Source: an uncultured Holophagales bacterium (GTDB taxonomy: Bacteria > Acidobacteriota > Thermoanaerobaculia > Multivoradales > UBA5704). Taken from it: a stretch of DNA of 64,000 nt. Under the pieces are notes generated by a model, which searched no databases, was not told the DNA's origin, and saw only the letters and a program-made list of their open reading frames with translations. The stretch is taken from the NCBI GenBank assembly GCA_963842525.1, contig CAWJGT010000019.1:288001-352000 (forward strand), in the 5' to 3' direction. Shown here piece after piece: positions 1 to 60,249 of the stretch; position 1 is the stretch's first letter; every line of letters begins with the position of its first letter. Both the position numbers and the translations under genes were made by a program.

Positions 1-7401
<7,401 letters not shown>

Positions 7402-7405
<4 letters not shown>

Positions 7406-28208: not shown

Positions 28209-28523
28209 GTGGCACGGCGGCTTCCCACCCACCGTCCGCCGACGCATCCTGGAGAGATGCTCCTGGAGGAATTCCTGAAGCCGCTCGCCATCAGCCAGTC
28301 GACCTTTGCCATCCGCCTTGGAGTCTCCTTCCCGAGACTCAATGAAGTCATTCGGGGCAAGAGGTCGGTCACTCCCGATACGGCCCTCCGCCTGGCCCGC
28401 GTCCTTGGCACCTCGGCTGACTTCTGGCTGGGCCTGCAGCAGGACTGGGACCTGTGGCAAGCCCTGCACGGCAAAGAAGCGGCCGCAATCGAGCAGCTCG
28501 AGCCGCTCCGCCTTCCCGCATGA
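28209..28523 (+). CDS. higA: HigA-family antitoxin (HTH-XRE), with no adjacent toxin
   Basis: PTHPGEMLLEEFL, RLNEVIRGKRSVTPDTALRL, FWLGLQ. Confidence 0.9.
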   Translation: MARRLPTHRPPTHPGEMLLEEFLKPLAISQSTFAIRLGVSFPRLNEVIRGKRSVTPDTALRLARVLGTSADFWLGLQQDWDLWQALHGKEAAAIEQLEPLRLPA

Positions 28524-28533
28524 GCGGGAGGTT

Positions 28534-37285: not shown

Positions 37286-38668
37286 TCAGGCAGAGAGGAA
37301 CCGGCCCTCCTTGTACATCTCCCGCTGCACACCCTGGAACAGGTCGGCGGCGCGAATCTCCTGCGGATCGCGGACCACGGCCTTCAGGCAGGCATAGCGC
37401 AGCACGTTGACGATGCTGCCGCCCGCCAGCTCGTGGTCGCGGGCCAGCTTGCCCAGGTCCACGCCGGCAGCGAGACGGTAGGGCTTGTCCTTGAAGTTGT
37501 CCTCCCACAGGCGCAGCCGTTGCTCGGCGTCAGGTATTGGAAAATGGACCATGGCCTGGAAGCGCCGGGCGAAGGCCTCGTCGAGGTGCGAGCGGAGGTT
37601 GGTCGCCAGGATGACCAGGCCCGGGAAATCCTCGATGCGTTGCAAGAGATACGACACCTGCTGATTGGCGGCGCGGTCGTTCGCATCCCGCGACTCCGTG
37701 CGCCGGCCGAAGAGCGAGTCGGCCTCGTCGAAAAAGAGGATCCAGTCCTGGTGCCGGGCGTGATCGAACAGGCTCGCCAGGTTCTTCTCCGTCTCGCCGA
37801 TCCATTTCGAGACGACTTTCGACAGGTCGACACGGTAGACGGGGCGGCCCGTGGCCTTGCCCAACAGGGAGGCGGTGAGCGTCTTGCCGGTGCCGGGCGG
37901 GCCATAAAAAAGGGCACGGAAGCCCGGCTTCAACCGTTTGGCGAGCTGCCACCCGTTCATCAGCGTCTCTTCGTGCCGCACCCAGGCAAGGATGTCCTCG
38001 ACCTCGTCGCGCGACGGCGGATTGAGCACCAGGTCGTCCCATTCGTACGGTGTGGTGATGCGCTGCGCCGGGAACTCCGGGCTCAAGGGCGGCTGGTAGG
38101 AGCGCCCGGTGGTGAGCCGCTCGACATATTCGGCGGTGAGCTGCAGCCCCGCGGAATGCCACGGCTCGTCCTGGTGCCGGTGATCGAGCCGCAGGACGTT
38201 GTGTACATAGAGAGCGTGCTCGTGGCTGAACAGCTCGTAATAGCGCAGCCGTGCCGCGACGTCCTCGCCGGCGAGCAGGAACAGGGCGGTCTCCGCCGAG
38301 GGGAGGAAGCCGCCATGCGAGACTCCGGTCAGACCGCCGAACTCCGTGAAGCGGCGGTCGAGCGCCCGGTTCTGGATGAAGAACACGTCGAGCACGTCCG
38401 GCCGGATGTGCGGGATGAAGCTCAGGACGAGCACCAGCCGCCCGGCCGCTCCCAGGCCGAACCGGTGCACCACGTCCGCATAGGGGGAACCGGCCGCCGG
38501 CAGCGGCGGCGGCGCGAAGGCTTCCAGAGGATCGCCGGTCACCTCCTCCTGCCCGGCGTGCAGCTTCATCCGCAGCTCCAGGACCGCCCGGAACCAGGCA
38601 ATCTCGCGCTCGATGACATCGGCATTCGTGGCGTTCGCGGTCAGACCGGCAAGGTCGTCTGTGCTCAT
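37286..38668 (-). CDS. afp15: eCIS AAA+ ATPase (Afp15/Pvc15)
   Basis: GPPGTGKT, VVSKWIGETEKNL, FFDEAD, QRIE, RRF; last gene of the eCIS operon. Confidence 0.93.
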   Translation of the reverse strand: MSTDDLAGLTANATNADVIEREIAWFRAVLELRMKLHAGQEEVTGDPLEAFAPPPLPAAGSPYADVVHRFGLGAAGRLVLVLSFIPHIRPDVLDVFFIQNRALDRRFTEFGGLTGVSHGGFLPSAETALFLLAGEDVAARLRYYELFSHEHALYVHNVLRLDHRHQDEPWHSAGLQLTAEYVERLTTGRSYQPPLSPEFPAQRITTPYEWDDLVLNPPSRDEVEDILAWVRHEETLMNGWQLAKRLKPGFRALFYGPPGTGKTLTASLLGKATGRPVYRVDLSKVVSKWIGETEKNLASLFDHARHQDWILFFDEADSLFGRRTESRDANDRAANQQVSYLLQRIEDFPGLVILATNLRSHLDEAFARRFQAMVHFPIPDAEQRLRLWEDNFKDKPYRLAAGVDLGKLARDHELAGGSIVNVLRYACLKAVVRDPQEIRAADLFQGVQREMYKEGRFLSA

Positions 38669-38672
38669 GGGC

Positions 38673-41025
38673 TCACCATGCTACCTGAAGAGGTTGCGGC
38701 ATCCAGCGGTGGAAGATCATGGACAGACTCCAGGGGACTTCGTCGACCAGCACGTCGACCGTCTTGCGCTGCACCCGCAGCTTCCAGCCCTCGGACGTCC
38801 TCTCCAGCCGTCCCTCGCGCTGCAGGAAGGTCTCCTGCAGGCCGGCGACCGAGGTGTTCTGCACGATCGTCCAGTTGGCAAGCAGGGAGCGCAGCAACGT
38901 ATCGCAGACCTCCCGTTCCCACTCGGTCGGCGCGATCTCGAGCGCGACGGGCGACTCCAATGGCAGGCCGCAGAGGATCTTGTTCAGGGCGAGGGCCGGC
39001 TCCGGGCTTGCTGTACAGCCATGGATCAGATATTGCAACAGATGGACGGCGCGCGAGGCCGTCTCAACATCGCGCAGTCGGACCTTGCCTGCCGCGTCCT
39101 CGCCCAGCAGGTCCAGCATCTTGAAGAGGTGCGGCAGGAAGGCCCCGGCCAGCACGAGGCCGGCGTTGTCGACATAGAGCGGCTCCGCCTCGTCCCCGGC
39201 CTTCGCCTGCCGTACCGGAGGCCGGTTCTCTCGCCGCTTGCGGGCCGGCGGCTTCCAGAGCGCCAGGAGGCGCGGCCGGCCGTGCCGCAGAGCGGCTGCG
39301 GGCGCGCATGACCGCCCGCGGCCGCCCGCCGGCCGGCGCTCTCGAACAGCCTCGCGCCGGCTGTGGCACGCGCGGACGCATCCCCCCGGTAGCGCCGGGC
39401 CACGTGCTCGAAGAACTCCACGGTGAGCCGCTCCACCGAGACCTGCCCTCCCTGGACGGCGGGCCAGGACCTCCAGCAGGAAGCTCCAGAACGCCCGCCG
39501 GCCGGTGAGCGCCGGATGGCCGGGCGGAGCTGTCTCTCCCCAGGCCGCGGACAGCACCTCGGCGGCTTCGAGCAGCGCGCGGTGCCGCCGCGGCGCCAGC
39601 TTTTCGACCACCCGCTCCAGGGCGGGCTCGGGCAGGAGCTTCATCCACCGCTGCCGCAGCCGCCGGTCCGCCGCATGGCGGGCGAGGAAGTCCGCGGCGC
39701 CCACCGTCTCGTCCGGCCTCCCCGGGCACCCGCGGTCCGCACCGCCGCGAGGAACGTCTCGTCGCCGGCCGGCCCGCCCACGGCTTCGCGCAGCAGGAAG
39801 CGCTCGACCACCGCGGGCAGAGGGGACGGGAACAGCTCCTTGAGCAGCCGGTGATAGGAATCCTCCATCAGCCTGGCTCCCTCGTGAACGAGCAGGGCCT
39901 CGCCGAGGAGCGCACGGCGGACGCGCTCCTCGGGCCGCGGCCGGTAGGGCGCCGGAATCCGGGCGAAGAGGTGCAGCAGCGCCTTGAGCGTCCTGGCTTC
40001 CGTCGGGCACAGGCGGTCGAGCGCGCTTTCGAAAAGCGCCTGCGGGATCGACCCCACCAGCTCCGAGCGCCGTTCCGGCTCGCTGTGGAAGGCGGAGATG
40101 AGCTGCTCCGCGTCCGCCGGGGCCTTACACCCGCCCCAGGCCCAGCTCGCGCACCAGGTCGCCCACCACGGCCGGCAGAGAAGAGCGAACGGAGCGTCGG
40201 GCTGCCGTCCGATCCAGGCCCTGGCGCAGCGCCGCGAGCACGTCCGCATAGTCCAGACCCTCGCGAGCGGCGATGCCCCGCAGCACCGAGCGCACGAAGC
40301 TCCGGCGGTTGAATTGCGAGCCCGGATCGCGCACCAGATAGGCCTGCGCCAGCAGCCAGAGGACGCGCGACAACGCTCGCTCGGAGAGCGGCACCACCGG
40401 CTCGCCGCGGTGGGCCTCGCGGATGTGGCCGATGTAGGCGATGATGAGCGCCGCGTGCTCCGGCGCGAGGAGGCGGACCAGCTCACGGAGCCCCCGCTCC
40501 CGGAGCTGGAGCACGATACGCTCCAGCACCCGCGTCTCGCGGCCCAGCCGGAGCATCACCTCGACGATCCCTTCCGGATCGCTCGCCGCCATCTCCAGCA
40601 CCAGCTCCTCCAGCGAGAAAGCCGAGCGCTCCGGCACCCAGAAGGGGAGTGTGCCGCGAAGCAGAAAGTGCTCCAGCAGCTCGCGCTGCACCGCCTCCTC
40701 GGACCGCGAATGGCCCGCCTCCGTGGCCTCCTCGCCGATCTCCCCCAGCGCCGCCTTGAGAGACCGGCGCAGCTCCACCTCCAGCCGCTCGACGACCGCC
40801 TCTTCGAACCCGGTAAACGGCACGGTGCCGAGGTCGATTTTCAGCTTCGCGATCCGCGCCTGTCGTCCCGGCACGTCGATCTCGTCAAAAACCCTTTCGA
40901 TCACGGGCAGCGGCCCGTCGGCGGTTGAAGTCCGAGAGGCGCGGCTGGAGGGCCAGTGCTACGGCCTGCGAGGGGGTCTCAAGGTCGAGGGTCTGGTGGC
41001 GGAGAGTGTGGTGGAAGGGGTTCAT
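38673..41025 (-). CDS. afp14: eCIS tape measure protein (Afp14), multiply frameshifted
   Basis: I.KL.IDLG, HFLLRGTLP.W, YVDNAGLVL...FLP, LNKILCG, LQETFLQREG.L, PWS.SMI..WM across different frames. Confidence 0.85.
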
Positions 41026-41031
41026 GAGCGC

Positions 41032-41535
41032 TCAATTCTTTCCTCGCAGTGCCCTCGTCCCCGTCACTTCCGCCTCCCGTTCCAGGCCCGCATCGTCGTT
41101 GATCGCTGTCTCTCGGACCTGCATCGTTGGCCGCACCCGGCCCTGCATCTGCTGCACGACGTGCCGGCCCTCATGCGGCAGGTGTCGCTGCTGTCCCGGC
41201 GCGACGTGGATGTCCTGCCCTGGGTGTAGGCATGGGCCTGAATTTGCGCGGGCTTGGGCGAGTTGTAATGAACCCGCACGTCGGAGAGGTCCATGCCGAG
41301 GGGTGCCCAGGCCGGTCTTGAGACCGTCGCTCAGGCCAGTCGAACTTTCGGCTCCGGTCGTGCTGTTCACCGCCTCCCGGAGCTGAAGGGCGTTCTGGAC
41401 GCCACGGCTTTGATTCGCCGCCTCTTCCCAAGCCGCGAGCTGGCTCACTTTGGGACTCTGCACCTCCGCGGCTTGCGGGGGGGTGCCTTTGAGTGCTTCG
41501 CTTGGCCAGCTGGCGCGCTTCTTCTTTTTCCGCAT
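41032..41535 (-). CDS. Stand-alone DUF4157 (eCIS core) domain protein; compensating frameshifts
   Basis: TGL.D.LK.GL, MDLSDVRVHYNS.KPAQ.QAHAYTQG, HLPHEGRHVVQQ, LEREA. Confidence 0.88.
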   Translation of the reverse strand: MRKKKKRASWPSEALKGTPPQAAEVQSPKVSQLAAWEEAANQSRGVQNALQLREAVNSTTGAESSTGLSDGLKTGLGTPRHGPLRRAGSLQLAQARANSGPCLHPGQDIHVAPGQQRHLPHEGRHVVQQMQGRVRPTMQVRETAINDDAGLEREAEVTGTRALRGKN

Positions 41536-41553
41536 GCTCACATGCGTAGCACA

Positions 41554-47921: not shown

Positions 47922-49721
47922 TCAGTTGATCTTGACCAGAGCGCCCTTGACGGTGAGCAGCCCCGAGGCGCTGAGCTCCGCCATGCCGCTCGCCTTGGCC
48001 ACAAACTGTCCCTTGGCCTTGTGCTCGATCTGCAACCCTTCCATCGAGGCCTTGGCCTTGGCAATGGCGGCGAGGTTGGCGCCGGCCTCGATCTTGACGT
48101 TGCCTTTGGCCTTGAGCGTCAGGTTCGAGCCGCTCTCCAGGACGATCCCGCTCTTCGACAGCACGACGCTGTTCTTGTTCTTGTCGCGGATCGCGACCTC
48201 GCCTGTCTTGTCGTTGAGGGTGATCGTCTGCTTGCCGGGCGTCCTGATCTCCAGGACCTTGTCCTTGTCATCGAAGGTGATCTCGAGCTTCCCCTTGGTG
48301 ACGATGGCTTTCTTGCCGTTTTTCTCGTCGGGCGGATAGGGTGGCGCGAGCTTCTTGCTGTAGACACTGCCCAGAATCACGGCGTAGCGCGGGTCCTGGT
48401 TCATGAAGCCGACGATCACCTCATCGCCGGTTTCGGGGAAGAAGACCGCGCCGCTCTGGTTCGAGGCGTAGAACGTGCCGAGGCGCGCCCAGACACCCTT
48501 TGCGTCATCCTGGAGCAGCGGCAGGGAGACCAGCACGCGGAATTCGCCTTCCGGGTCTTTGGCAATCTTTTTGACGATCCCCGTCTGCAGGCCCTTGACC
48601 GGCGGGAGCTGGCCCGAGGCGTCGGGCGCCGCGATGCCCGGCGTCTCGCTCGCGAACCACTGCGCCGACAGGCCGAAGTCCGCGGTGGTGAGCCATTCGC
48701 CGTTCCGGATGTTGTGCTGCACACAGCTGATCCAGGCTTTGCCTTGGAAATGCGGGCCGAGGCCTGCGAGCTCGAGGGTCTTGCCCGGCTGCGCGAGCGC
48801 GCTGCCCTGGAAGCGTACGAAGCCGCGGATCTTCGACAGCTTCGCCTTGAGGAGCTCCGCCGCGGACCAGTCCTGGAGCGCGGTCTTCGCAATCGAGCCG
48901 CCGGTCTGCTGATTGAGCTTCTTGACCTTGAACACCTTGGCCAGCTCGTCCGACGTCACGTCGCCCGTCTCGTCGATGCTCACTGTGCCGGGACCGGCTT
49001 CGATCAGCTTTTGCGCGGCGACGTCCCAGGTGTAGCTCTTGATGGCCGAGGGCGCGAGCTGGGTCGAGGCGTCCATCTCGGCCTCCAGGTCGTAGATCGA
49101 ATCGCCGTACGTGACCAGCAACGCGGCCTTCTGGCGGGTGTCCGGCTCCTTGACCGTCACCTTGCCGTTGCTCACGATCACCACCAGGCCGTTCATCTCT
49201 GCGCGCGTCAGCATCAGGTCCCAGTCGCTGGCGTAGTACTGGACGACGGTCTCCTGCACGGTCTTGGTGGCCGCCACGTCTTTGGCGAGGCCGTTGGCGG
49301 CGATCAGCTTGCCAATCAGATCGCCGTCCTTGATCTTTTCGAACAGGGCGTTCTTGCGTTCCAGGGTCATTCTGATCGCCTCGTCGGTGACTTCGACGAT
49401 CAGCTTCGAGCCCTCGGTGCGGTCGATCTCGACCCCCTGCTTGACGATCACGCCTTGGAAGATCACGCTCTCCTTCTGGTTGTAGCCGGCGGCGATCGAA
49501 ACCTTGGCGCCTGGCAGGAACGTCTTGAGCCCGCTGATCGGGAAATTGCTCTCGGCGGCGTCGCCGTCGAACAGGACGAAGCGCGCTTTCGGAACCTTGT
49601 TGACGTGGCTCCACGTATCGATGGAGATCACCTGGTAGCTGCTCTGGATCGGCTTGCCGTCTACCGTGACGGTGAAGCTGGTGAGCGGCGTGTCACCGGC
49701 GAGGGGGGAGGGAGGGGTCAT
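47922..49721 (-). CDS. vgrG: eCIS VgrG-like spike (Afp8)
   Basis: VQY..SDWD, G.V.FQG, WARL, FFPETGDEVIVGF..DPR..VILG, beta-helix C-terminus. Confidence 0.95.
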   Translation of the reverse strand: MTPPSPLAGDTPLTSFTVTVDGKPIQSSYQVISIDTWSHVNKVPKARFVLFDGDAAESNFPISGLKTFLPGAKVSIAAGYNQKESVIFQGVIVKQGVEIDRTEGSKLIVEVTDEAIRMTLERKNALFEKIKDGDLIGKLIAANGLAKDVAATKTVQETVVQYYASDWDLMLTRAEMNGLVVIVSNGKVTVKEPDTRQKAALLVTYGDSIYDLEAEMDASTQLAPSAIKSYTWDVAAQKLIEAGPGTVSIDETGDVTSDELAKVFKVKKLNQQTGGSIAKTALQDWSAAELLKAKLSKIRGFVRFQGSALAQPGKTLELAGLGPHFQGKAWISCVQHNIRNGEWLTTADFGLSAQWFASETPGIAAPDASGQLPPVKGLQTGIVKKIAKDPEGEFRVLVSLPLLQDDAKGVWARLGTFYASNQSGAVFFPETGDEVIVGFMNQDPRYAVILGSVYSKKLAPPYPPDEKNGKKAIVTKGKLEITFDDKDKVLEIRTPGKQTITLNDKTGEVAIRDKNKNSVVLSKSGIVLESGSNLTLKAKGNVKIEAGANLAAIAKAKASMEGLQIEHKAKGQFVAKASGMAELSASGLLTVKGALVKIN

Positions 49722-50419
49722 GCCGGCTCCTCACCGAGCGGCGGGAAAAGGAGCTCGGAGCCCACGGTGAGCTGCCGGAAATCGTTGAGGCCGTTGATGC
49801 GCGCAACCTGGGGGTAGAAGGCGCTGCTGCCATAGATGCCGTAGCACAGGAGCGGCAGCGTGTCTCCGGCCTTGACGGTCACTACATGGGAGAGGTCGGG
49901 CGAGGTCTTGTTGGCCTTTTTGGCCAGCTCGGTCTCGTCGGTGTATTCGAGGAAGGCGGCGTCAGCCCGCGCACGCAGGGGCGTGCCGTCGGGCTTGAAC
50001 AGGGTGTAGGTGACGGCGAGCTTGGTAAGCCGGCAGCGGAAAGTGAACGTACCCCACAGCAGGCGCAGGAATTTCGGGCTGTGGATCTTGCCGGAGTAAT
50101 CGAACACCACGGCTTCGAACGCCGCGATCTGCCGGGTAATCCCGTGTTCGCCATAGGGGACGACTCCAGGCAGCGGGCTCGGCACCACGCCGGTGCCGTC
50201 GAACACCAGCTCGAGGTGGACCACCCGGGACTTCATCTTGTTGAACTTGGGCGAGCCGCCAGGGCTGCCCTGCGCCTGCACGTCGTTGTAACAGATCCTG
50301 TAGGTCCGGGTGTACTTCTCCGGATTGATCATCACCGCATACTCGCCCAGGGCCTTCTTGAAATCGCCCTTTTCGTAGGCGGTGATGACCATCTTCTCGA
50401 GGCTGCCGGAAAAACCCAT
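49718..50419 (-). CDS. afp7: eCIS tube initiator with a LysM domain (Afp7)
   Basis: MINPE.Y, LVFDGTG, L.WG, LF.PDGTPLRA, VKAGDTL..L...IYG LysM. Confidence 0.92.
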   Translation of the reverse strand: MGFSGSLEKMVITAYEKGDFKKALGEYAVMINPEKYTRTYRICYNDVQAQGSPGGSPKFNKMKSRVVHLELVFDGTGVVPSPLPGVVPYGEHGITRQIAAFEAVVFDYSGKIHSPKFLRLLWGTFTFRCRLTKLAVTYTLFKPDGTPLRARADAAFLEYTDETELAKKANKTSPDLSHVVTVKAGDTLPLLCYGIYGSSAFYPQVARINGLNDFRQLTVGSELLFPPLGEEPA

Positions 50420-50421
50420 TG

Positions 50422-50610
50422 TCATCTCCCTCGCTGGTTCCGCAGAGCCTTGAGGACACGCTTGACGCACTCGTCCACGATCTCCTCGCGGTCGAGCTCG
50501 CCGTCGCCGCACCTCTCGGTGGACTCTTCCTCGCGTTTCTCCTTTTTCTCCTCCGCCTCCGCGTCGCTCACCCGCATGTGGATGCCGATCTCGCTGACTT
50601 CCAGTGCCAT
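50422..50610 (-). CDS. afp6: eCIS Afp6/DUF5908 small protein
   Basis: MALEV.E..I...V ... IVDECVKRVL..L, in the canonical position. Confidence 0.8.
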   Translation of the reverse strand: MALEVSEIGIHMRVSDAEAEEKKEKREEESTERCGDGELDREEIVDECVKRVLKALRNQRGR

Positions 50611-50627
50611 CGCCGCGCTCCTTTCCT

Positions 50628-51158
50628 TCAGACCAGCCGCGCCGCGGCCTGGGCCAGCCTGGTGGCGGCCGCAAGGCCGCTGCCGAGGTTGAACCGCTCA
50701 AAATAGTTGTAGGCGAGCTCCAGCGTCTCGACCAGGATCTCATTGCGCTGCGAGTCGAGCGCTCCCACCTCCCAGCGCACCGGCCAGGCGTTGACGAACA
50801 TCCAGGCCATGGCCGGCAGGCCGTCCGGCTTGAGCAGGGTCACCAGCAGGTTCTGGGTGATGATCGGTAAAGACATGCTAGAGCCGACCGTCTGCCCGAA
50901 CCATTCGGCGAGAACCGAATCCTTGGTGACCACGCCTCGCTTGAGCACCAGGTTTGAATATCTGGCCGGCAGAGGGAGGCGATGCACGAAACGGTTCTCG
51001 CCTCCCTCTGCCACCTCCTCCACGCCGAATTCGGCCTTGATGCCGGTGACCTCCTGGAAGCTGGCGTCGATGCCGGTGAGCATGGACAGAGCCGTCCCCG
51101 AACCGAGGATATTCACGGTGAAGTTAAACGCTGCGGGGGGGTAGTACTCGGCCGCCAT
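50628..51158 (-). CDS. afp5: eCIS minor tube protein (Afp5, gp19 family)
   Basis: YPP.AF.F.V, FQEV.G, EGGENRF...LP, LVLKRG, W.F.NAWP, ETLELAY. Confidence 0.92.
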   Translation of the reverse strand: MAAEYYPPAAFNFTVNILGSGTALSMLTGIDASFQEVTGIKAEFGVEEVAEGGENRFVHRLPLPARYSNLVLKRGVVTKDSVLAEWFGQTVGSSMSLPIITQNLLVTLLKPDGLPAMAWMFVNAWPVRWEVGALDSQRNEILVETLELAYNYFERFNLGSGLAAATRLAQAAARLV

Positions 51159-51667: not shown

Positions 51668-53347
51668 TCAGGCGACGCCTTCCATTTTCTGGATGAACGA
51701 CAGCTCGATGAACTCGGCGGGACGGATCATCTGCAGCGTGACCTGGACGATCATGTAGCCGTCGAGGACGTGCTGCCCGGTCATGGTGCTGCCGAGGCCG
51801 CACTCCACGCCGAACGCCTCGGACGCGGTGGCTCCCATGAGGCCGCCTTGCGACCAGAGGCCTTTCAAGAAGCCGGAGACCATGGACACCACGTTGGTCC
51901 AGGTGTTGCCGTCGTTGGGAGCGAACACGAACTGGTTGATCGCCGCCTTGATCGACTGCTCGATGTAGATGAGCGTGCGCCGGACCTGGATGTAGCGGTA
52001 ATCGTTGCTGTTGCCGTCCAGGGTGCGGGCACCCAGACCACGGTGCCGCGGCCGGGGAACTCGCGCAGGGCGTTGACGGCCTTGCCGTCCACCGGCATGT
52101 TGAGATCTTCCTGCAGTTTGTAGTTCAGCTTGAAGGTCGGCGACTCGACGGCGCGCAGGTTGACGTTGGCCGGCGCATTCCAGACGCCCCGGCTCTCGTC
52201 GGTGGCGGTGTACACCCCCGCCATGGCGGCGCTGGCCGGCAGCACGTTGTTCTTGCGGGCCACGAGGGACTCGATCTCGGTCAGGAGCGGCAGGGCGGCG
52301 GTGAGGTCCTGGTTGAGCTTTGCGTCGTCAATCCCGGATTTGCCGATGTTGTCGATGTCTTGCTGGACCTTGCCCGCCCGCCCGCCCCGCCTCATACAGC
52401 ATCTTCCGCTGCCATGTCAGAACCTCCTTCAGGTTTTGGAAGGGATCGAGGGACGGAGGGTCGACAGTGATTTCGCCGGGACGAGTCGGGACGGGTGGGG
52501 TGACGGCAGCGAGGGCGGCGGCGACAGCAGCGGCGCAGGGGTCGGAAGAGGCGGCGGCGAATTCTACGCCGCCACCGTTGGCGGACGACAACACGCCGGA
52601 GGTCCGCACGTTGGTGTAGGAGACGTCCCTGACTGGAAACACCGTAGCCTGGACGAAGGGAAAGTAGACCATCCCATAGCTGAGGTGGCCGTTGCCGACA
52701 TTCTTCCTCAGATCCTCGATCACTGGCAGCGGCTCGGCACTGGTCTTGACGTTTTGAGCACCGTAGACGTCGAGGAGGGCGACCCGGTCCTGCAGCTCGG
52801 CGCATTGATCGAGCGCCTTTTTGGCCACGTCGTAGTAGTCTGTGTCCGGAGCCAGGTTGACGGCGTCGGGGATGACGATCATCGTGGGGCCGGACTGCTC
52901 CCGGAGGACGTCCAGACCGGTCTCCAGTTCTCTCTTGGCGACCGCGGCCGCCGAACCCTCGCCCGGCCCGTAGCAGCCCACCGAGACGACGTAGCAGCTG
53001 CCGCCGCCGTTGTCGTAGAACAGCCGCATGCTGTCGTAGAGGTTGAAGGGAAGGCTGCTCCTCTCGAGCTTGTAGTACGTGTCGGCTTTGAAGTCGTAAT
53101 CCGCCTCGGTGGCCGCCTTGATGGCATACAGCGGCTTGATGCCCTTGCCGAAGATCTGGTCATATTCCGCCAGCGAGCTTATGGGGATGGCCTTGTTGAA
53201 GACCGGCTTGCCGTTGATCGTCGCTTTCTCCGTATAGCCGATGAAGCCGGGGACCGCGGTCGCCACGCCGATCACTGTCGGCGGAAAGGCCGAAAGCTCC
53301 TTGACGTAGACGCCGGGGGTCTTGTAAGGGGGGTTACTCACAGGCAC
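51668..53347 (-). CDS. eCIS contractile sheath protein 2; frameshifts near 52370 and 52035
   Basis: YKTPGVYV.E, TAVP.FIGYT, RGVWNAPAN, RY.QVRR, RPAEFI. Confidence 0.88.
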
Positions 53348-53887: not shown

Positions 53888-55480
53888 TCAGGCGACGCCT
53901 TCCATTTTCTGGATGAACGACAGCTCGATGAACTCGGCGGGACGGATCATCTGCAGCGTGACCTGGACGATCATGTAGCCGTCGAGGACGTGCTGCCCGG
54001 TCATGGTGCTGCCGAGGCCGCACTCCACGCCGAACGCCTCGGACGCGGTGGCTCCCATGAGGCCGCCTTGCGACCAGAGGCCCTTCAGGAAGCCGGAGAC
54101 CACGGACACCACGTTGGTCCAGGTGTTGCCGTCGTTGGGAGCGAACACGAACTGGTTGATCGCCGTCTTGATCGACTGCTCGATGTAGATGAGCGTGCGC
54201 CGGACCTGGATGTAGCGGTAGTCGTTGCTGTTGCCGTCGAGGGTGCGCGCGCCCCAGACCACCGGGCCGCGGCCAGCGAAGTCGCGGATGACATCCACAG
54301 CCTTGCCGCTTACCGGCACGTTGAGGTCCTCCTGCTGCGTGGAATCGATCCGGAACGTCGGCTGCATCACCGAGTTCAGGACGATGTTCGCCGGCGCGTT
54401 CCAGACACCCCTGGTGGCGTCGACGACGGTGTAGACGCCCGCCATGCCGCCGCTCGGGGGGAGCGTGTTGTTCTTGATGGCGAGGGTGCGCTCGATGTCG
54501 AGCAGCAGCGGCAGGGCGGCGGTCAGGTTCTGGTTGAGCTTCTGGACGTCAGGCGCCGTGCCCATGTTTTCGATGTCCGCGTGCACCGCCACGGCCCGCG
54601 TGTTCTTTGGGTCCTTGTAGTCTCCGTAGAGGTTCTGGCACTCCCATCCGAGGATCGTCTTCAGTTGGCCGAGCGGCACCACGTTCTTGTAGGTGAACTC
54701 TCTGGCGGACACCACCGAGGTCTCGAGGAAGGGGAAGTAGGCCATGCCGTAGTCGAGCGCGGTGTCGCCCACGTCCTCGCGGAACTGTGCGATGATCGCC
54801 TCCCAGTTGGCTTTCGTGGCATGCTGCGTGCCGTAGACGTCGAGGATGGCGACGCGGTCCTGCAGCGCTTGGCACTGGAGCAGCATGGCCCTGACCACGG
54901 CTTGAAAGTCCGCAGAGATCCAGGGCGTTGCTGCGGCGGAATCTGTCGCTGTCGGAGGGAGCAGCACCGCGTCAGGGACGACCAGCATCGTGGGTCCGAC
55001 CTGCTCCTCGGTGACAGCCAGGCCCTTGAGCAGGGCGTCCTTGCTGATCGTGGCTCCATTCGTGTAGTTCCCCACGGAGACCACGAAGGCATCGCCGCCG
55101 CCGTTGGCGTAGAAGAGACGTACGCTGTTGTAGAGGTGGAACTCCGACTCCGTGGTCCGGTTGAGGACGTAATATTCGGTCTTGGGCAAGGCGGCCGTGA
55201 GGTCGATGACCTTGAAATCGAAGGCCCCCGCGGCGATCTGCTGCGTGGTGGCCGGGGCGATGGTGTACTCCGAGGGGGCGTCCTCGCCAAAAACCGCAAT
55301 GTAGTCGGCGAGCGAGCCGATCGGGATCGCCTTGTTCTTGACCGGCTTGCCGTTGAGCATCGCCTGCGCGGTATAGCCGATGAAGGCGGGGACGGCGGTC
55401 TGCACGCCGACAATGGAGGGCGCGAAGGCCGGCAGCTCCTTCACGTAGACGCCCGGGGTCTTGTAAATATTGGTTGCCAT
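53888..55480 (-). CDS. eCIS contractile sheath protein 1 (Afp2/3/4 family)
   Basis: YKTPGVYV, TAVPAFIGYT, GVWNAPAN, VWGARTL, RPAEFI; ORF intact. Confidence 0.95.
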   Translation of the reverse strand: MATNIYKTPGVYVKELPAFAPSIVGVQTAVPAFIGYTAQAMLNGKPVKNKAIPIGSLADYIAVFGEDAPSEYTIAPATTQQIAAGAFDFKVIDLTAALPKTEYYVLNRTTESEFHLYNSVRLFYANGGGDAFVVSVGNYTNGATISKDALLKGLAVTEEQVGPTMLVVPDAVLLPPTATDSAAATPWISADFQAVVRAMLLQCQALQDRVAILDVYGTQHATKANWEAIIAQFREDVGDTALDYGMAYFPFLETSVVSAREFTYKNVVPLGQLKTILGWECQNLYGDYKDPKNTRAVAVHADIENMGTAPDVQKLNQNLTAALPLLLDIERTLAIKNNTLPPSGGMAGVYTVVDATRGVWNAPANIVLNSVMQPTFRIDSTQQEDLNVPVSGKAVDVIRDFAGRGPVVWGARTLDGNSNDYRYIQVRRTLIYIEQSIKTAINQFVFAPNDGNTWTNVVSVVSGFLKGLWSQGGLMGATASEAFGVECGLGSTMTGQHVLDGYMIVQVTLQMIRPAEFIELSFIQKMEGVA

Positions 55481-55515
55481 TCGTCACCTCATTCGTGTTG
55501 ATGGTTGATCGATCG

Positions 55516-56716
55516 TCACATGTAAACGAAGATGTCGGCATGGGCGGGCGCGTGGCGACAGCGCGACGGCACGACCCGTTGGTTGGACGCGACCGGCAGG
55601 CGGTCCACGAGCACCTGCTCGTGCGCCGACAGTTCGTGGCGGCCCCAGAGACGGAAGTTGTAGAACGACCGCTCCATGAGCGGGAGCGCTTCCTTGGAAG
55701 TAAAGCGGTAGGCCGGCTGTCCGTTGGCCAGCATCACTGGACTCGGCCCCAGGAACTCGGTCTGGGGTTGGCTTTCGATGCGCAGGTCCTCGAAGCCGGA
55801 GTGCGTGGGCGCCACGATGTAGTAGCGCCATTGGATCGACCGTCTTTCGAAGCGGAGAAGGTAGTGGACAGTGACGATCTGCGCCTGCGAGGACAGGTCG
55901 ACCACCGGATAGATCCCGTCGGACTCCTGCGTCGGGGCGGCGACCAGAAGGTCGATCAGGACGAAGGGAACGGGATAGGCCTGGATAGATCACCTCCTGG
56001 GTCGAAACAAGCGTCTGGCCATCGAGTTGCTGAAGTGTGGACTTGTCCTCGGGCAGACCGGCGAAGTCGAGGAAGACCTCGTTGCACCCGGCGCAGCGGT
56101 CCTTGCAAAGGACCTCCTCACCCGCGATGTCGAGGACCCGGACCTTCTTCACTGTCTCGGTCACCGGCACCGGCAACTGGACAGGGATTACCCGCAGGCA
56201 CTTCTCGAGCTTTTCGGGATCGAGGACCGCAGCGGCCGGCGTGCCCACAGCCTGCTCATTGCTGTAATAGAGGTTCTTCGTCGATGGATTGGTGCCGATC
56301 GGCATGTCGGTGAAGCTCACGAAATAGGGGTTGGTGAGAGCGAGGGTGAATGTCAACCGCGTCCAGCTCTGCCACCGTTGATCGGACTTGTTTCTCTGTC
56401 TCTGCCGCCGCAGGTAGTCGAGGAGGCCCTCCGCGCGCTCCTTGGTTGCGTCGTAGAGGACCGAAAAACCGGCCGCCTCGGCTCGGAAGAGGAGGCCCAG
56501 GTCTTTCATCAGCGCCGCCGACGCGGGCGTGGGCCGGCACGTGAAATCGGGGCAAACGTCCTGCGAGCCGTTGTAATAGTTGTGGCGTATGGCGACTTGC
56601 ATCAGCAGCTCGTAGAAGTATTTCCGGGCCTGGTCTTGGGGTCTCTGCCCATCGCGACCTTTCACCGAGCCCAGGATGTGCTCGAAGGCACGGCGGTTGG
56701 GAGGATTGGACGGCAT
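55516..56716 (-). CDS. eCIS-associated protein following DUF4255 (cap-adaptor-like position), frameshifted
   Basis: L..V.IRH.YY...C.DF...PT..S..L...GLLFR, NPYF..FT, F.RR...WRYYI; lies between Afp16 and the sheath. Confidence 0.65.
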
Positions 56717-56730
56717 CGGCTTCGCACGCC

Positions 56731-57351
56731 CTAAGGCTGCGTCTCCCTGTCCGCGTCGGGATCCTGGTCGGCGACGCCTCCCGGCGTCTGAAGGCCCTGC
56801 ACGGCAGGCACCTCGGCCTGCATGGCCTCGCTGACGAAGGGAATCATCCGCATCTTGTAGTAGACCGAGGGCAGGTACTTCACGCCGGCCAGGCCCATCA
56901 GATGGCTGCGATCGACCGGCTCGAGATTGGTCAGCTCAAAGCTGAGCTTGTCGATCCGCGGATCGAGGCCCGGCAGGGTGTCGCGAGTGAACGAGGCGTT
57001 CTGCTGGAAAAAGACGATCGTGCGCGAGATCGTCGACAACCCCTCGGCGTAGCTCTTGCCGGAGAAGTTGGCGTAGAAGAGCAGCAGCAGGTCGATGTAA
57101 AGAGGCGGCGCGACGAGTGCAAAGCGATTGCCGGCGATCGGCACATTCGGGTTGTAGGTGCTGATGGCGGTTTCGCGCTGGATGCCGGCCAGGAATATGA
57201 CAAGCTTGTTCTGCGCCTCGGCCACGGGGTTACCCTCCAGATCGACGAGGTCGGACAGAACCACCCAGTCGCCTTCGCGCGGCGTGGCGTTCCAGAGGAA
57301 TTCGTTCAACCGTTTCCGGATCGTTTCCAGCGTGCCTCGAATCTCGCTCAT
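56731..57351 (-). CDS. afp16: eCIS cap/tail terminator (Afp16/Pvc16, DUF4255)
   Basis: PPLYIDL.LLF.ANF, Y.EGL..IS..I.FFQ, KYLPSVYY; AGGAG RBS; first gene of the operon. Confidence 0.9.
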   Translation of the reverse strand: MSEIRGTLETIRKRLNEFLWNATPREGDWVVLSDLVDLEGNPVAEAQNKLVIFLAGIQRETAISTYNPNVPIAGNRFALVAPPLYIDLLLLFYANFSGKSYAEGLSTISRTIVFFQQNASFTRDTLPGLDPRIDKLSFELTNLEPVDRSHLMGLAGVKYLPSVYYKMRMIPFVSEAMQAEVPAVQGLQTPGGVADQDPDADRETQP

Positions 57352-57388
57352 CGCGGTTCTCCTGTGCTGTGTCGCTTCATCCTTACCA

Positions 57389-57425
57389 ATCGCAAACCGC
57401 CGGCGGGGGAAGACATCGGAGGCGA
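57389..57425 (-). promoter_or_regulatory. Conserved promoter motif, copy A (before afp16)
   Basis: tcgcctccgATGTCT-tcccccgc-CGGCGGTTTGCGAT. Confidence 0.8.
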
Positions 57426-57440
57426 AAGTCTCCGCTGGCT

Positions 57441-59477
57441 TCAGCCGACACCTGTCTGCTTCTTCTGCCTCAGGATGACCCAGGTACGGATGAAGGAACG
57501 AGGTTGCTCGCGCTGTTGCTGCAAATTCTTTAATTCATCGAGATTCCGGTTCAAATAGATGCTCATAGCCCGTTGCCTACGTCCCCCGGGTGCGAGTTGC
57601 TTCGGGTCGGCATGCGTGCTGTGACCAACACGCAGAGGTTCGTTCTGCTGGAATAATTCTTTTACCTGCGATCCCTTGATATTCACATGTTTAAACAAGG
57701 CCCGCGCCACTGCCTTCTGTGTTTCACTGAGATCAGAGCGCTCGAGGTCGTTCACGAGTTGCTCGTAAGTGTACTGCTGATTGTGATCAACTCTATTTGA
57801 GATGACAGAGTTCTGTAATAGTGAGTTTACCTGCCGCCCCTCGATTTTTAGAGCTTTAAGCAAGTCGAGCGTCGATGCTTTTTGCATTTCACTGAGACTA
57901 GAGCCTTTGAGTTCGTTCACGATTTGCTCGTAAGTGCCCTGCGCATTGTCATCAATTCTCAGCTCTGAGAGGGTAGAGTTCTGTAATAGTGCTTTTACCT
58001 GCCGTCCCTCGAATTTCAAAGTTTTAATCAAGGCCAGCACCGCTGCTTTTTGCATTTCACTGAGACTAGAGCCTTTGAGTTCGTTCACGATTTGCTCGTA
58101 AGTGCCCTGCGCATTGTCATCAAATCGCAGCTCTGAGATGGTAGAGTTCTGCAAGAGTGTGTTCACCTCCCGGCCATTGATTTTCACATTGTTAATAAAA
58201 GCCCGCGCCACTGTCTTTTGCGTTTCACTGAGATTAGAGCTCTCGAGGCCGTTCACGAGTTGCTCGTAAGTGACGTGCTGCTCATCGCCCATTTGCACCT
58301 CCGGGATGCGGTGGTCATAGAACGGAGTGGCGTGCCAAATGGCAGGGTCAATGAAGCTGGCGCGTCCATATTTTGGTAGGATATCTCCTTTGATGGAGCC
58401 ATCATCGCGATTGGCAGCACGGCTCCTCTCAATTAGGTTTTTGGCCGGCTGAGGCATACGGTCTTCGTAGGCCGCATGTCCCTGATCGTCTGCGACGTAC
58501 TCGGGGGATACACCTTGGTCGGCATTGTTGTAGGTCAGGTTGACGAACAGTGTCTCGCCCACTGAGTCTTTGTGCAAAACCCCACTTCGATCAGGCAGCC
58601 GGTTGGGGTAGTAGTCAACATCAACATAGACGTCGTGCGTCCGACTGATTTCTTCCCAGTTGGCCGCTAGCCACTGAAACTGCCCGGCGCTGAATAGAGT
58701 TTGGTTCACATTGGCTTGGACTTGTTGCCGTATTCCGGCCAGCTCGGGAGGAAGAAATGCCTCTTGTACGGACGAGGCAACCTGTGGCTCGATCTTCTTG
58801 AGAGCCCAATTGGTGATTAATAGCCCGCCACCATTCCGTACGAATTCTAAACTTGCGATACGCAACGGCTTGCCCGGGTTTTTTGCAATGAAAGCAGCGA
58901 CTTGTGGTATATTGTTGAGCTCGGTCATAAGGGCCGTTTGCTGGTCAAAGAAACTTTTGCTCATTGATGCTATCTCGATGTTCGGCAGCGCGGGTTTGAC
59001 ACCCAAGGTTTCCCAATCTTTGGCTTCTATCTCGACTGTAACGGTGTCGCCCACAGATACGCCTTCAGAAATGTTTGATGCCCACCAGTCTCGTGCCTCT
59101 GTCGTCAATAGCCTAATTGGCACATCTTTTTTGTTTTCAGGATTGCCCGTGTATTCGTTCGCAAGGAGCTGTTTCAGAGCCGGGGGCAATTGGTCAGGTG
59201 TACGCTGGGCGTTATAATCGGGAAACAGCACCCGCTGCACCACCCCACTCGCACTGTGGCTGGTGTTGAGCCTGTGGCCGAGTGCCATCTGTTGTACCAC
59301 GCGCGGACTGTTGTCGATCACGTCCTTGCGCGCATTGAGCTCCATCACTTGCGGGCGATTTTGTGCCATATCCACATCAGCCGACGTAGCCTTCGCTTTT
59401 CTGGTGGAGGCCGATCGAGCGGTATGGCCTTGCTGTAACCGTTCAGGTTTAGCTTGCTCTGATGCTTGAGATTTCAT
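57441..59477 (-). CDS. Candidate eCIS cargo: shared leader plus a 2OG-Fe(II) oxygenase-like domain interrupted by four ~56-aa repeats
   Basis: Leader ..DNSPRV..VVQR; LHKDS ... IWHATP ... PRSFIR; AT-richer than the flanks. Confidence 0.7.
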   Translation of the reverse strand: MKSQASEQAKPERLQQGHTARSASTRKAKATSADVDMAQNRPQVMELNARKDVIDNSPRVVQQMALGHRLNTSHSASGVVQRVLFPDYNAQRTPDQLPPALKQLLANEYTGNPENKKDVPIRLLTTEARDWWASNISEGVSVGDTVTVEIEAKDWETLGVKPALPNIEIASMSKSFFDQQTALMTELNNIPQVAAFIAKNPGKPLRIASLEFVRNGGGLLITNWALKKIEPQVASSVQEAFLPPELAGIRQQVQANVNQTLFSAGQFQWLAANWEEISRTHDVYVDVDYYPNRLPDRSGVLHKDSVGETLFVNLTYNNADQGVSPEYVADDQGHAAYEDRMPQPAKNLIERSRAANRDDGSIKGDILPKYGRASFIDPAIWHATPFYDHRIPEVQMGDEQHVTYEQLVNGLESSNLSETQKTVARAFINNVKINGREVNTLLQNSTISELRFDDNAQGTYEQIVNELKGSSLSEMQKAAVLALIKTLKFEGRQVKALLQNSTLSELRIDDNAQGTYEQIVNELKGSSLSEMQKASTLDLLKALKIEGRQVNSLLQNSVISNRVDHNQQYTYEQLVNDLERSDLSETQKAVARALFKHVNIKGSQVKELFQQNEPLRVGHSTHADPKQLAPGGRRQRAMSIYLNRNLDELKNLQQQREQPRSFIRTWVILRQKKQTGVG
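57650..58272 (-). repeat. Four tandem coding repeats of 168/168/165 bp
   Basis: Anchor tgctcgtaagtg at 58261, 58093, 57925 and 57760; protein unit TYEQ.VN.L..S.LSE.QK. Confidence 0.9.
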
Positions 59478-60136
59478 GACAGTTCATCCGAATCGTCTTC
59501 CGGACCGTCTTCCGTTTCAGAGGCCAAAAATCCGACGTGCTTCCAATAGTGCTCGTCGATTGCGTTTTCATTTCTTTCGATTTCATCATCATCAGTATCA
59601 ATATCCAAATAGATCCCGGGGATGTGGTAGCCCACCGTGGCCAGCTTCATCCTTAATTCATCTGATTTTGAGGGTCCACCGCCGGTCAAAGCGTGAGGAT
59701 AGTTATGTGTGATATATTTCACTACCGCTTGGGAGTTTGCATCAGTGGCTTGACTCAGCGCCGCGATCACCTCCCTCATGGCACTCAACCACTCACGATC
59801 GCCAGAGACGAGGTTTTTGTGACTGTGGGTCACGCTCGTGAAGGTACTGCCCCCCTTATGTATGTGCAAATGTGGTACACCCACGTTGGGAATGTAATCA
59901 TCGCGAACTACCCTCTGGACGACAGCATGCGGCCTGCCGTTGATCATGTCGCTGCGTTCTTTGAGCTGCGACACCCGCGGGCTCGAGTCCATCATCTCCT
60001 GCCGCTGGCGTTGTGCCACCGTTTCGGAGCGGTGATCCATATCAGACGGCCTAGCCCTCGTTTTCGAAGAGGAGGCCGGTCGAGAGGTGTGACGTCCCTG
60101 GATCTGTGCAGCTTGTGCTGGTGCTTGAGATTTCAT
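59474..60136 (-). CDS. Candidate eCIS cargo 2: shared leader plus an unknown His-rich domain
   Basis: CAGGAGG RBS; MKSQA...VAQR...DSSPRVSQL...VVQR leader, PHLHIH motif, acidic tail; ATGA overlap with the next gene. Confidence 0.7.
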   Translation of the reverse strand: MKSQAPAQAAQIQGRHTSRPASSSKTRARPSDMDHRSETVAQRQRQEMMDSSPRVSQLKERSDMINGRPHAVVQRVVRDDYIPNVGVPHLHIHKGGSTFTSVTHSHKNLVSGDREWLSAMREVIAALSQATDANSQAVVKYITHNYPHALTGGGPSKSDELRMKLATVGYHIPGIYLDIDTDDDEIERNENAIDEHYWKHVGFLASETEDGPEDDSDELS

Positions 60137-60187
60137 GATAGAACCTCCTGAATGATCCTGCCTGCGCTGCGTCGCATTACCCCCACC

Positions 60188-60224
60188 ATCGCAAACCGCC
60201 GCCGACAGGAGACATCGGCGGCGA
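60188..60224 (-). promoter_or_regulatory. Conserved promoter motif, copy B (before the cargo operon)
   Basis: tcgccgccgATGTCT-cctgtcgg-CGGCGGTTTGCGAT. Confidence 0.8.
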
Positions 60225-60249
60225 AGGTTCGTCCCCCAATGGAGCGCTG

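Follow-up and report, generated by a model that had tools for sequence, protein, structure and literature searches.

A 64,000-nucleotide stretch of DNA from an uncultured Holophagales bacterium (GenBank assembly GCA_963842525.1, contig CAWJGT010000019.1, positions 288,001 to 352,000; hereafter the window, with all coordinates counted from its first letter) carries two adjacent genes, ORF-A and ORF-B (ORF, open reading frame), that share an N-terminal leader ahead of unrelated payloads and that lie directly upstream of, and co-directional with, a gene cluster for an extracellular contractile injection system (eCIS). ORF-B (59474-60136, minus strand) encodes 220 residues from the ATG of an MKSQA start, composed of a leader of 76 residues (59909-60136, minus strand), which ends in the junction VVQRV at 59909-59923, and an acidic payload of 144 residues. 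ORF-A (57441-59477, minus strand) encodes 678 residues, with a leader of 83 residues (59229-59477, minus strand; junction VVQRV at 59229-59243) and a payload that contains an inserted repeat array; both leader lengths are counted through the end of VVQRV. The ATG of ORF-A overlaps the stop codon of ORF-B (ATGA), the two ATGs and the 12 bases after each are identical (15 bases in total), and an AGGAGG ribosome-binding site, read from the DNA at 60144-60149 (minus strand), stands 7 nt before the ATG of ORF-B. Only 89 bp separate the end of ORF-A from the gene for the Pvc16_N cap protein of the cluster. A promoter and terminator scan of 57200-60400 returned sites no more numerous than in shuffled sequence, and none on the coding strand.

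A longer version of ORF-B with a TTG start (335 residues) was discarded because it overlaps the upstream gene and because the profile of the leader family described below begins at the methionine of MKSQA. The corresponding gene calls in the protein database, P0001 (166 residues) and P0002 (634 residues), begin downstream of MKSQA and have thereby lost most of the leader; as both calls start at internal codons, automatic annotation may hide such leaders.

A shared N-terminal leader

The resemblance between the two proteins is confined to their N termini. In a BLASTP comparison of ORF-A with ORF-B, the N termini alone aligned (26 of 71 residues identical, E 1e-7 for this single comparison), the remainder giving nothing significant, and when aligned with MAFFT the two leaders were 42% identical across 92 columns and had MKSQA, D-x-SPRV-x-Q, and VVQRV in common. 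These comparisons, together with a reading of the ORFs, bear out an earlier note on this DNA, which had placed the two genes at these coordinates and on this strand and had described the MKSQA start, a D(N/S)SPRV.Q motif, a leader end at VVQR, and unrelated domains thereafter. The modular leader of ~75-80 residues that it proposed is likewise supported: we find a discrete N-terminal module, of 76 and 83 residues, beside an eCIS cluster with an AAA+ ATPase of its own.

As a control for chance, we built a hidden Markov model (HMM) from 12 leaders of other organisms, containing no window sequence, and ran it with filters off over the 532 stop-to-stop ORFs of at least 60 residues in the window. 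The best match was ORF-B (5e-17, 57.1 bits), where the first profile position falls on the methionine of MKSQA, followed by ORF-A (4e-9), and the leaders of both retain the R, S-P, Q, and R positions that are invariant in the family. The third match, at 2.4e-4, was the DUF4157 ORF of the cluster (stop-to-stop 41035-41553), where only profile positions 52-88 aligned, over SPKVSQL...AANQS; the fourth-best ORF scored 0.67, and hence just three of the 532 ORFs were matched. We regard the shared leader of ORF-A and ORF-B as confirmed to be a real feature. The resemblance of the DUF4157 protein to it is real but partial, because the match at 2.4e-4 covers the second half of the profile and the next ORF scored 0.67. 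The related motif that the earlier note had reported in this protein thus stands for the second half of the leader, while the DUF4157 assignment itself finds no Pfam match in the single ORF.

The leaders have a net charge of +6 (ORF-A) and +7 (ORF-B), compared to -8 and -15 for the respective payloads, and AlphaFold2 gave a predicted local distance difference test score (pLDDT) below 50 across residues 1-81 of ORF-A, which corresponds to predicted disorder. A Sec or Tat signal peptide was rejected by inspection, with no dedicated predictor run, as the leaders have no hydrophobic core and 28-34% hydrophobic residues.

A leader family in several phyla

The two leaders belong to a conserved, apparently undescribed sequence family that is present in several phyla and for which, there being no database model, we use the term DNRPE/NNSPR leader family as a working definition. 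A profile of the two leaders, run in a full HMMER scan over 1.84 billion representative proteins at E <= 1e-3, returned 27 matches, 25 of them foreign to the window and all inside the first ~115 residues. PF13699 (DUF4157, named eCIS_core in Pfam) follows directly after the leader in 12 of the 25 foreign matches; one of the others leads into a ribonuclease domain, and the rest are fragments or have unannotated C-terminal domains. The alignment of the family shows a variable polar start, often MK-x-Q or MNTHADK..., followed by a core D-N-R-P-E-A-V-A-Q-R-K-L-Q-E-M, at least one copy of N-N-S-P-R/Q-V-x-Q, and a close with hydrophobic-hydrophobic-Q-R; an R, S-P, a Q, and the R of the junction do not vary. 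Homology of the ORF-A and ORF-B leaders with N-terminal regions that precede DUF4157/eCIS_core and toxin domains elsewhere is supported by these alignments.

To sample the family by species, we scanned one genome for each of 185,579 species with the pattern [AIV]DNRPE[ATV]VA, which gave 129 matching stretches, of which 66 were confirmed, in 65 loci. Most of these are in Bacteroidota, and others in Gamma-, Beta-, and Alphaproteobacteria, a cyanobacterium, Desulfobacterales, and SAR324; among them, Algoriphagus genomes encode the leader and then DUF4157 (L005, L011, and L052). Since the window leaders fall outside the scan pattern, the 65 loci represent the central type within the family.

No model of the leader exists in Pfam or in NCBIfam (10 proteins scanned, with two sub-threshold chance matches). 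When the leaders alone were used as queries in word-indexed searches, no proteins but those of the window came up (1 of 16 and 1 of 47 candidates), sequence searches of the PDB gave nothing for ORF-A and chance-level matches for ORF-B and the leader profile (E 0.05 or worse), and a plasmid collection held one weak partial match to ORF-A. A full-text literature search for four leader motifs found nothing relevant, and the leader is not described in the accessible portions of the eCIS literature; an extended-data alignment of cargo N termini in the AlgoCIS preprint cited below may already show part of the motif.

The junction between leader and payload

The hydrophobic-hydrophobic-Q-R junction recurs at the border between the upstream region and the payload. 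Payloads of the ORF-A type start with V/I-Q-R-V-x-F in all homologs, whether the leader alone or DUF4157 stands upstream, and VVQRV precedes an unrelated domain in ORF-B, as does the junction in other proteins unrelated to it, for example P0021 and P0028, and at the loci L018, L030, and L054. We counted the motif in the best leader protein per locus (64 loci) over the 110 residues after the core, taking the expectation from shuffles. The pattern [IVL][IVLA]QR followed the core in 17 of the 64 proteins, two of the 17 being second core copies, where 0.9 were expected. Among proteins without a DUF4157 signature, which was scored by regular expression and where some ORFs are truncated at contig ends, the count was 16 of 43 against 0.8 expected, and proteins with the signature showed a looser junction (e.g., P-I-Q-K-K before the domain) in 14 of 21 against 2.1 expected. 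Given this enrichment over shuffles, we consider the junction motif to be real.

Pre-toxin junction motifs that mark the border between a constant region and a swappable toxin are known as VENN in CdiA and as DPxGL-type motifs in Rhs proteins. The present border is likewise marked by a short conserved motif and differs from these in being hydrophobic-hydrophobic-Q-R. Its role may be that of a recombination border, or it may be a site of cleavage or of docking. Cleavage at VQR is possible and would fit the older idea of DUF4157 as a releasing peptidase; the signal peptides of Photorhabdus virulence cassette (PVC) cargo are reported to stay uncleaved in particles (PMC11495950), which argues against it.

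Payloads and their combinations

Using residues 90-420 of ORF-A as the query, we found 14 homologs of its payload (E <= 4e-67), eight of which contain PF13699 and eight of which match the leader profile (two from its training set and six independent). The ORF-A-type payload follows the leader alone in P0003, P0011, P0013, and P0016, the leader plus DUF4157 in P0006, P0007, P0009, and P0012, and DUF4157 with another N terminus in P0004, P0010, P0014, and P0015, while two further homologs have no sequence ahead of the payload, perhaps because their gene calls are cut. Because PF13699 and the leader each occur in 8 of the 14 homologs, the ORF-A payload is, as judged from the company that it keeps, a module of the eCIS-toxin type. 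Elsewhere, leaders precede ribonuclease, deaminase, and other domains, and together with the combinations among the 14 homologs this substantiates the swappable payloads that the earlier note had proposed. In Pedobacter gandavensis (L008, 10001-11641), for example, the leader stands before an APOBEC-like deaminase domain, in an otherwise ordinary neighborhood.

An alignment of 15 payload sequences showed H302-K-D304, H382, R660, and S661 to be invariant or nearly so. In 2-oxoglutarate (2OG)/Fe(II) dioxygenases, H-x-D...H forms the metal triad and a C-terminal R-x-S the 2OG-binding motif. We modeled ORF-A with AlphaFold2 (mean pLDDT 70.8, predicted template-modeling score 0.61), and in a Foldseek search of the PDB all of the listed matches were 2OG oxygenases or an uncharacterized bsmA homolog, including GA2ox3, AlkB, HrmJ, KanJ, and the ethylene-forming enzyme; these matches are weak (best E 1.1e-3, none <= 0.001, template-modeling score on the target <= 0.49). 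The payload had no Pfam match above threshold, and the Atlas yielded a weak lead only (0.84; PF13640 on 25% of one cluster's members). Taking the model and the conserved residues together, a 2OG/Fe(II)-dioxygenase fold is probable for the ORF-A payload.

The repeat array of ORF-A was located by Tandem Repeats Finder at 57661-58272 (minus strand) as a 168-nt (56-residue) tandem repeat of 3.7 copies with 81% matches. Its unit is helical, and within the payload the array follows the metal-binding residues and precedes the C-terminal R-S strand; as the homologs carry one copy of the repeat and a few carry two, we take the array to be a recent expansion. For the payload of ORF-B, no relative was found in Pfam, in the PDB, in the Atlas (best 0.83), or by phmmer among the sequences of this analysis, and its single-sequence fold, at a mean pLDDT of 43.7, was too poor for a structure search.

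Leader loci and eCIS genes

We searched the 65 leader loci with the window's eCIS proteins, using tblastn and iterated profiles with a reach of 10 kb, and found eCIS core genes at 13 of them, namely the ATPase gene at 10 and genes for sheath, tube, and spike at the other 3. These 13 comprise 7 of the 31 loci with full flanks and 6 of the 34 cut loci. Eight of the 10 ATPase loci have the ATPase gene on the strand of the leader genes, 0.55-5.8 kb upstream, with one to six leader-bearing ORFs after it, and at least two leader ORFs were present at 16 of the 64 loci with a profile match. Furthermore, the window ATPase is 44-53% identical to nine ATPases that adjoin leader-bearing genes in other phyla. 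As far as gene neighborhoods can tell, the adjacency of leader and eCIS genes is far above chance, yet frequent rather than obligatory. DUF4157, which so often follows the leader, is a published eCIS toxin marker, with a reported odds ratio of 2614 in eCIS operons (Geller 2021) and a reported presence in 36% of eCIS toxins compared to 0.06% of other proteins (Danov 2024, PMC11297309).

Consecutive arrays of leader ORFs directly downstream of an Alg15-like ATPase reach six members in L002 (4692-16133) and four in L049 (7758-14829), which are the clearest cases of one leader on many payloads. In Pseudoalteromonas citrea (L061, 9322-10846), a DUF4157-only gene (144 residues) lies directly upstream of the leader gene, with RebB and transposases nearby.

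Composition of the two genes

The window has a GC content of ~63-73%, with a dip to 52-54% at 57-60 kb. ORF-A and ORF-B have a GC content of 0.50-0.60 and a GC content at third codon positions (GC3) of 0.61 and 0.65 in the leaders and 0.575 and 0.55 in the payloads, compared to a GC3 of 0.79-0.90 in the cap, sheath, ATPase, and upstream genes, in agreement with the earlier description of both as AT-rich cargo genes. The two genes are thus compositionally foreign. While the leaders are slightly GC-richer than the payloads, they are still far from native, and since they share the foreign composition, whole leader-plus-payload cassettes were probably acquired, rather than payloads alone being grafted onto a resident leader. 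The horizontal acquisition that the earlier note had assigned to the payloads therefore agrees with the composition of both genes, although it probably needs to be extended to the leaders.

The eCIS cluster of the window

The eCIS core cluster spans 37286-57351 on the minus strand, as do all of its genes named here, and was delimited by Pfam and a GC3 frame plot. Pfam matches identify the Pvc16_N cap protein gene (56731-57351), the sheath gene (53888-55480), three gp19-type tube genes within the cluster, a CIS_tube gene (49718-50743), a VgrG-like spike gene (47922-49721), a tape measure (PF19268) split over 40125-40904 and 38673-40010, and an AAA+ ATPase with a single AAA domain (37286-38668; PF00004, 7.7e-29), a candidate for the Pvc15/Alg15 role. 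A gene without an assigned role lies between cap and sheath (55484-56716, from the GC3 frame plot), and the baseplate region at 42-47 kb has no Pfam matches.

The small DUF4157 gene (41032-41541, minus strand) carries the partial leader at 41353-41460 and a domain with two apparent compensating frame changes. A Pfam scan of the single ORF gave no match; PF13699 positions 12-46 were found in another frame (E 1.3e-4, 22.5 bits) and positions 52-78 in the frame of the ORF (E 0.11, 13.1 bits), and in a three-frame translation HEGRH is in frame within the ORF. The presence of PF13699 pieces in two reading frames indicates two compensating shifts, which are ~75 nt apart and located at short G/C runs. 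The gene is a DUF4157 gene by descent, yet disrupted or mis-sequenced as it stands. Apparent frame switches were also seen in the GC3 frame plot in 55484-56716, in 52328-53347, in the baseplate region, and in the tape measure. As the long ORFs at 2-12411, which resemble nonribosomal peptide synthetases (NRPS) and polyketide synthases (PKS), are intact, the assembly is not uniformly error-ridden, and the frame changes in the cluster point either to sequencing errors confined to this region or to decay of the cluster.

The segment 34252-37089, which follows immediately on the eCIS ATPase gene, holds a tyrosine integrase gene (plus strand) together with mobile-element-like ORFs, and this mobile element fills the 3' end of the cluster, the usual cargo position.

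Comparison with known systems

In AlgoCIS, a disordered N-terminal domain of two DUF4157 cargo proteins is reported to be required for loading, as are the AAA+ protein Alg15 and its Walker B glutamate, whereas DUF4157 is dispensable (preprint 10.64898/2026.05.27.728243). Cgo1 and Cgo2 are described as sharing a disordered N-terminal domain and DUF4157, as differing in their C-terminal domains, and as filling the tube lumen (PMC8894135). Likened by published description only, the window resembles AlgoCIS in a disordered N terminus that is common to two cargo proteins with different C-terminal domains, in a single-AAA+ ATPase in the cluster, in the association with DUF4157, and in that the congeneric Algoriphagus genomes mentioned above encode the leader and then DUF4157. 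It differs in that ORF-A and ORF-B are without DUF4157 between leader and payload and stand at the 5' end of the cluster, and in that loading sequences are called system-specific there, whereas the leader family described here crosses several phyla.

A second parallel is PVC, where cargo proteins such as Pnf and Pdp1 carry an N-terminal disordered tag of 50-70 residues, a signal peptide reported to be essential for Pvc15-dependent loading into the tube and transferable to other proteins (PMC11495950, PMC9054023). Pvc15 has tandem AAA domains, whereas the window ATPase has one; PVC cargo genes lie downstream of the operon, their signal peptides are uncleaved, and no significant sequence relation to the leaders was established. 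By eye only, V-A-K-A-Q-R near the start of the 50-residue Pnf signal peptide (PMC11495950) recalls the V-A-Q-R of the family core.

The arrangement also recalls the PVC-metallopeptidase/DUF4157 polymorphic toxins, which are described as combining a constant N-terminal module with highly variable C-terminal toxin domains, many of them without immunity genes and in several copies per genome (PMC3482391, Geller 2021, Danov 2024). In these descriptions the constant module is the metallopeptidase, while here the constant part is the leader before the metallopeptidase, and the leader can stand alone before a payload, as in the 43 of 64 proteins of the locus sample without a DUF4157 signature, some of these being contig-cut ORFs. 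Similarly, the eCIS signal peptide score of Danov 2024 (PMC11297309) marks cargo by N-terminal disorder and low hydrophobicity and is reported to correlate with DUF4157; that score is a physicochemical classifier, in contrast to the leader, which is a sequence family with invariant positions. Overall, the comparisons support placing ORF-A and ORF-B among eCIS cargo with an N-terminal leader for loading, a kind already known, to which the present sequences would add a conserved leader family and a defined junction motif.

Interpretation

We consider it likely, with a probability of about 0.65, that ORF-A and ORF-B are cargo of the adjacent eCIS and that their leader is a loading sequence that works through the ATPase. 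Loading via the ATPase is taken as the likeliest function because the window has AlgoCIS-like parts and because Algoriphagus genomes encode the leader before DUF4157. ORF-B and ORF-A would then probably be the first genes of the eCIS operon, translationally coupled; the AAA+ ATPase would be the presumed reader of the leader, through which the cargo would be loaded, and the variable C-terminal payload, a probable 2OG/Fe(II) dioxygenase in ORF-A and the acidic domain of 144 residues in ORF-B, would be delivered upon contraction. The small DUF4157 protein with its half leader would probably be loaded too, or act in trans on the cargo. A complex prediction of the ATPase with the leader, each supplied as an alignment, scored 0.23 relative to a mark of 0.32 and counts neither way on binding.

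A number of observations weigh against this assignment. The co-occurrence with eCIS that the earlier note had proposed to check with a leader profile is borne out at the 13 adjacent loci only, and a reach of 10 kb takes in no eCIS core gene at 52 of the 65 loci. Upon annotating five of these 52 loci with Pfam (L001, L008, L033, L047, and L061, covering 82 of 96 listed ORFs, with the 14 of L015 omitted), we found the 82 neighbors to consist of ordinary genes together with transposases, an integrase, and a RebB gene, and nothing closer to an eCIS than a small DUF4157 gene. Leader-like genes occur in Shewanella waksmanii (L047), P. citrea (L061), and Algoriphagus aquimarinus (L011), of which S. 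waksmanii ATCC BAA-643 and P. citrea NCIMB 1889 are scored as eCIS-negative and A. aquimarinus DSM 23399 as eCIS-positive with two operons (Geller et al. Supplementary Data 1), and the leader gene of A. aquimarinus does not adjoin eCIS core genes; congeners of other matched species are listed as negative in the same table, but these are different species. Loading sequences have been called non-conserved between systems (preprint 10.64898/2026.05.27.728243), and in the accessible portions of the eCIS literature we did not find a loading test on any member of the DNRPE/NNSPR leader family. Within the window, the cargo genes stand at the 5' end of the cluster, whereas such genes usually follow the ATPase at the 3' end, and with apparent frame changes in several of its genes the cluster may be non-functional.

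More tentatively, and with a good deal of doubt, the loading role might be extended beyond the window: the loading tag of the DUF4157 branch of eCIS could be one cross-phylum family, read by a conserved Alg15-like ATPase (44-53% identity) and marking cargo anywhere in a genome, including the many orphan toxins, by a signature of MK-x-Q..., DNRPE-VAQRK, NNSPRV-Q, and the closing junction, with the Q-R junction as a release site for DUF4157 in cis or in trans. The range of such a tag would take in Bacteroidota, Alpha-, Beta-, and Gammaproteobacteria, Cyanobacteria, Desulfobacterales, SAR324, and the high-GC organism of the window.

The junction also lends itself to a different explanation, in which the leader chiefly serves the DUF4157 metallopeptidase, in cis or in trans, as a pro-region or handle and would keep the toxin inactive or unfolded until its removal at Q-R, with loading specified elsewhere or not by sequence. 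The enrichment of the junction (17 of 64 versus 0.9, and 16 of 43 versus 0.8 without a DUF4157 signature) fits such a role, as do the V-Q-R-V-x-F that precedes ORF-A-type payloads after leader alone or DUF4157 and the DUF4157-only genes in the window's cluster and directly upstream of the L061 leader gene; DUF4157 has been proposed as a releasing peptidase (Zhang et al. 2012, PMC3482391), and a role in cis or in trans has been suggested (Danov 2024, PMC11297309). We nonetheless hold a pro-region to be unlikely, since AlgoCIS loading is reported to need the N-terminal domain and not DUF4157 (preprint 10.64898/2026.05.27.728243), Cgo1 toxicity to be independent of the metalloprotease motifs (PMC8894135), and PVC signal peptides to remain uncleaved in particles (PMC11495950), and the window's DUF4157 gene looks disrupted. 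If instead the leader were a module for another export route or a generic N terminus of polymorphic toxins, for instance in a type VI secretion system (T6SS) or in lysis release, with eCIS as one context among several, the 52 of 65 loci away from eCIS genes and the two eCIS-negative species with leader-like genes would be readily explained, and DUF4157 has indeed been reported in some T6SS effectors (PMC11297309, PMC8894135). That 13 of 65 loci adjoin eCIS genes is, however, far above random placement, for which our rough, uncomputed estimate is less than 1 in 1000, as an eCIS occupies some 20-40 kb in a few percent of genomes. Among the 82 annotated neighbors none belongs to a T6SS or to another secretion system, dispersed eCIS toxins are known in eCIS-positive genomes (up to 18 predicted per Moorena genome; PMC11297309), and A. 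aquimarinus has its two eCIS operons even though its leader gene does not adjoin core genes, all of which makes another route quite unlikely in our view.

The state of the cluster raises the question of whether the cassette is a relic, i.e., acquired leader and payload genes beside a decaying eCIS with nothing loaded today. Such decay would be in line with the GC3 of 0.55-0.65 in both genes, leaders included, versus 0.79-0.90 in their neighbors, with the frame switches in the GC3 plot, the DUF4157 domain over two frames, and the tape-measure profile over two ORFs, and with the integrase and mobile-element-like ORFs that abut the ATPase. Yet ORF-A (2 kb) and ORF-B are intact, as are the genes for sheath, tube, spike, and ATPase, errors of assembly at short G/C runs could account for the frame changes, and the start-stop coupling and ribosome-binding site are preserved, and we accordingly think a relic very unlikely. 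Finally, a local duplication of the 5' gene end, or chance similarity of low-complexity sequence, without any function, might be suspected from the adjacency of the two genes and from the polar, biased composition of the leaders, but is hardly credible when an HMM free of window sequences scores 5e-17 and 4e-9 and the leader recurs at N termini across phyla.

N-terminal loading tags make contractile injection systems programmable and are reported as experimentally defined for PVC and, in a 2026 preprint, for AlgoCIS. Should the leader family be the tag of the DUF4157-type branch, its profile could be used to draw up cargo lists for hundreds of environmental bacteria, genes at a distance from the machine among them, while the modularity of leader, DUF4157, and payload would give a clear test of the role of DUF4157, with the junction as a defined candidate processing site. 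The window yields two effector candidates, and among the toxin activities named in the accessible portions of the eCIS literature, we did not find a 2OG/Fe(II) dioxygenase.

Neighboring genes

Just upstream of ORF-B lies a gene of native GC content (60250-60996, minus strand), whose 248-residue product has an N-terminal hydrophobic, signal-like stretch and a weak sub-threshold match to thaumatin (PF00314, E 5e-4). The wider context includes the very large NRPS/PKS-like ORFs at 2-12411, a ketosynthase gene at 28306-30141, and, at 62032-63999, a Ser/Thr kinase with tetratricopeptide repeats (TPR).

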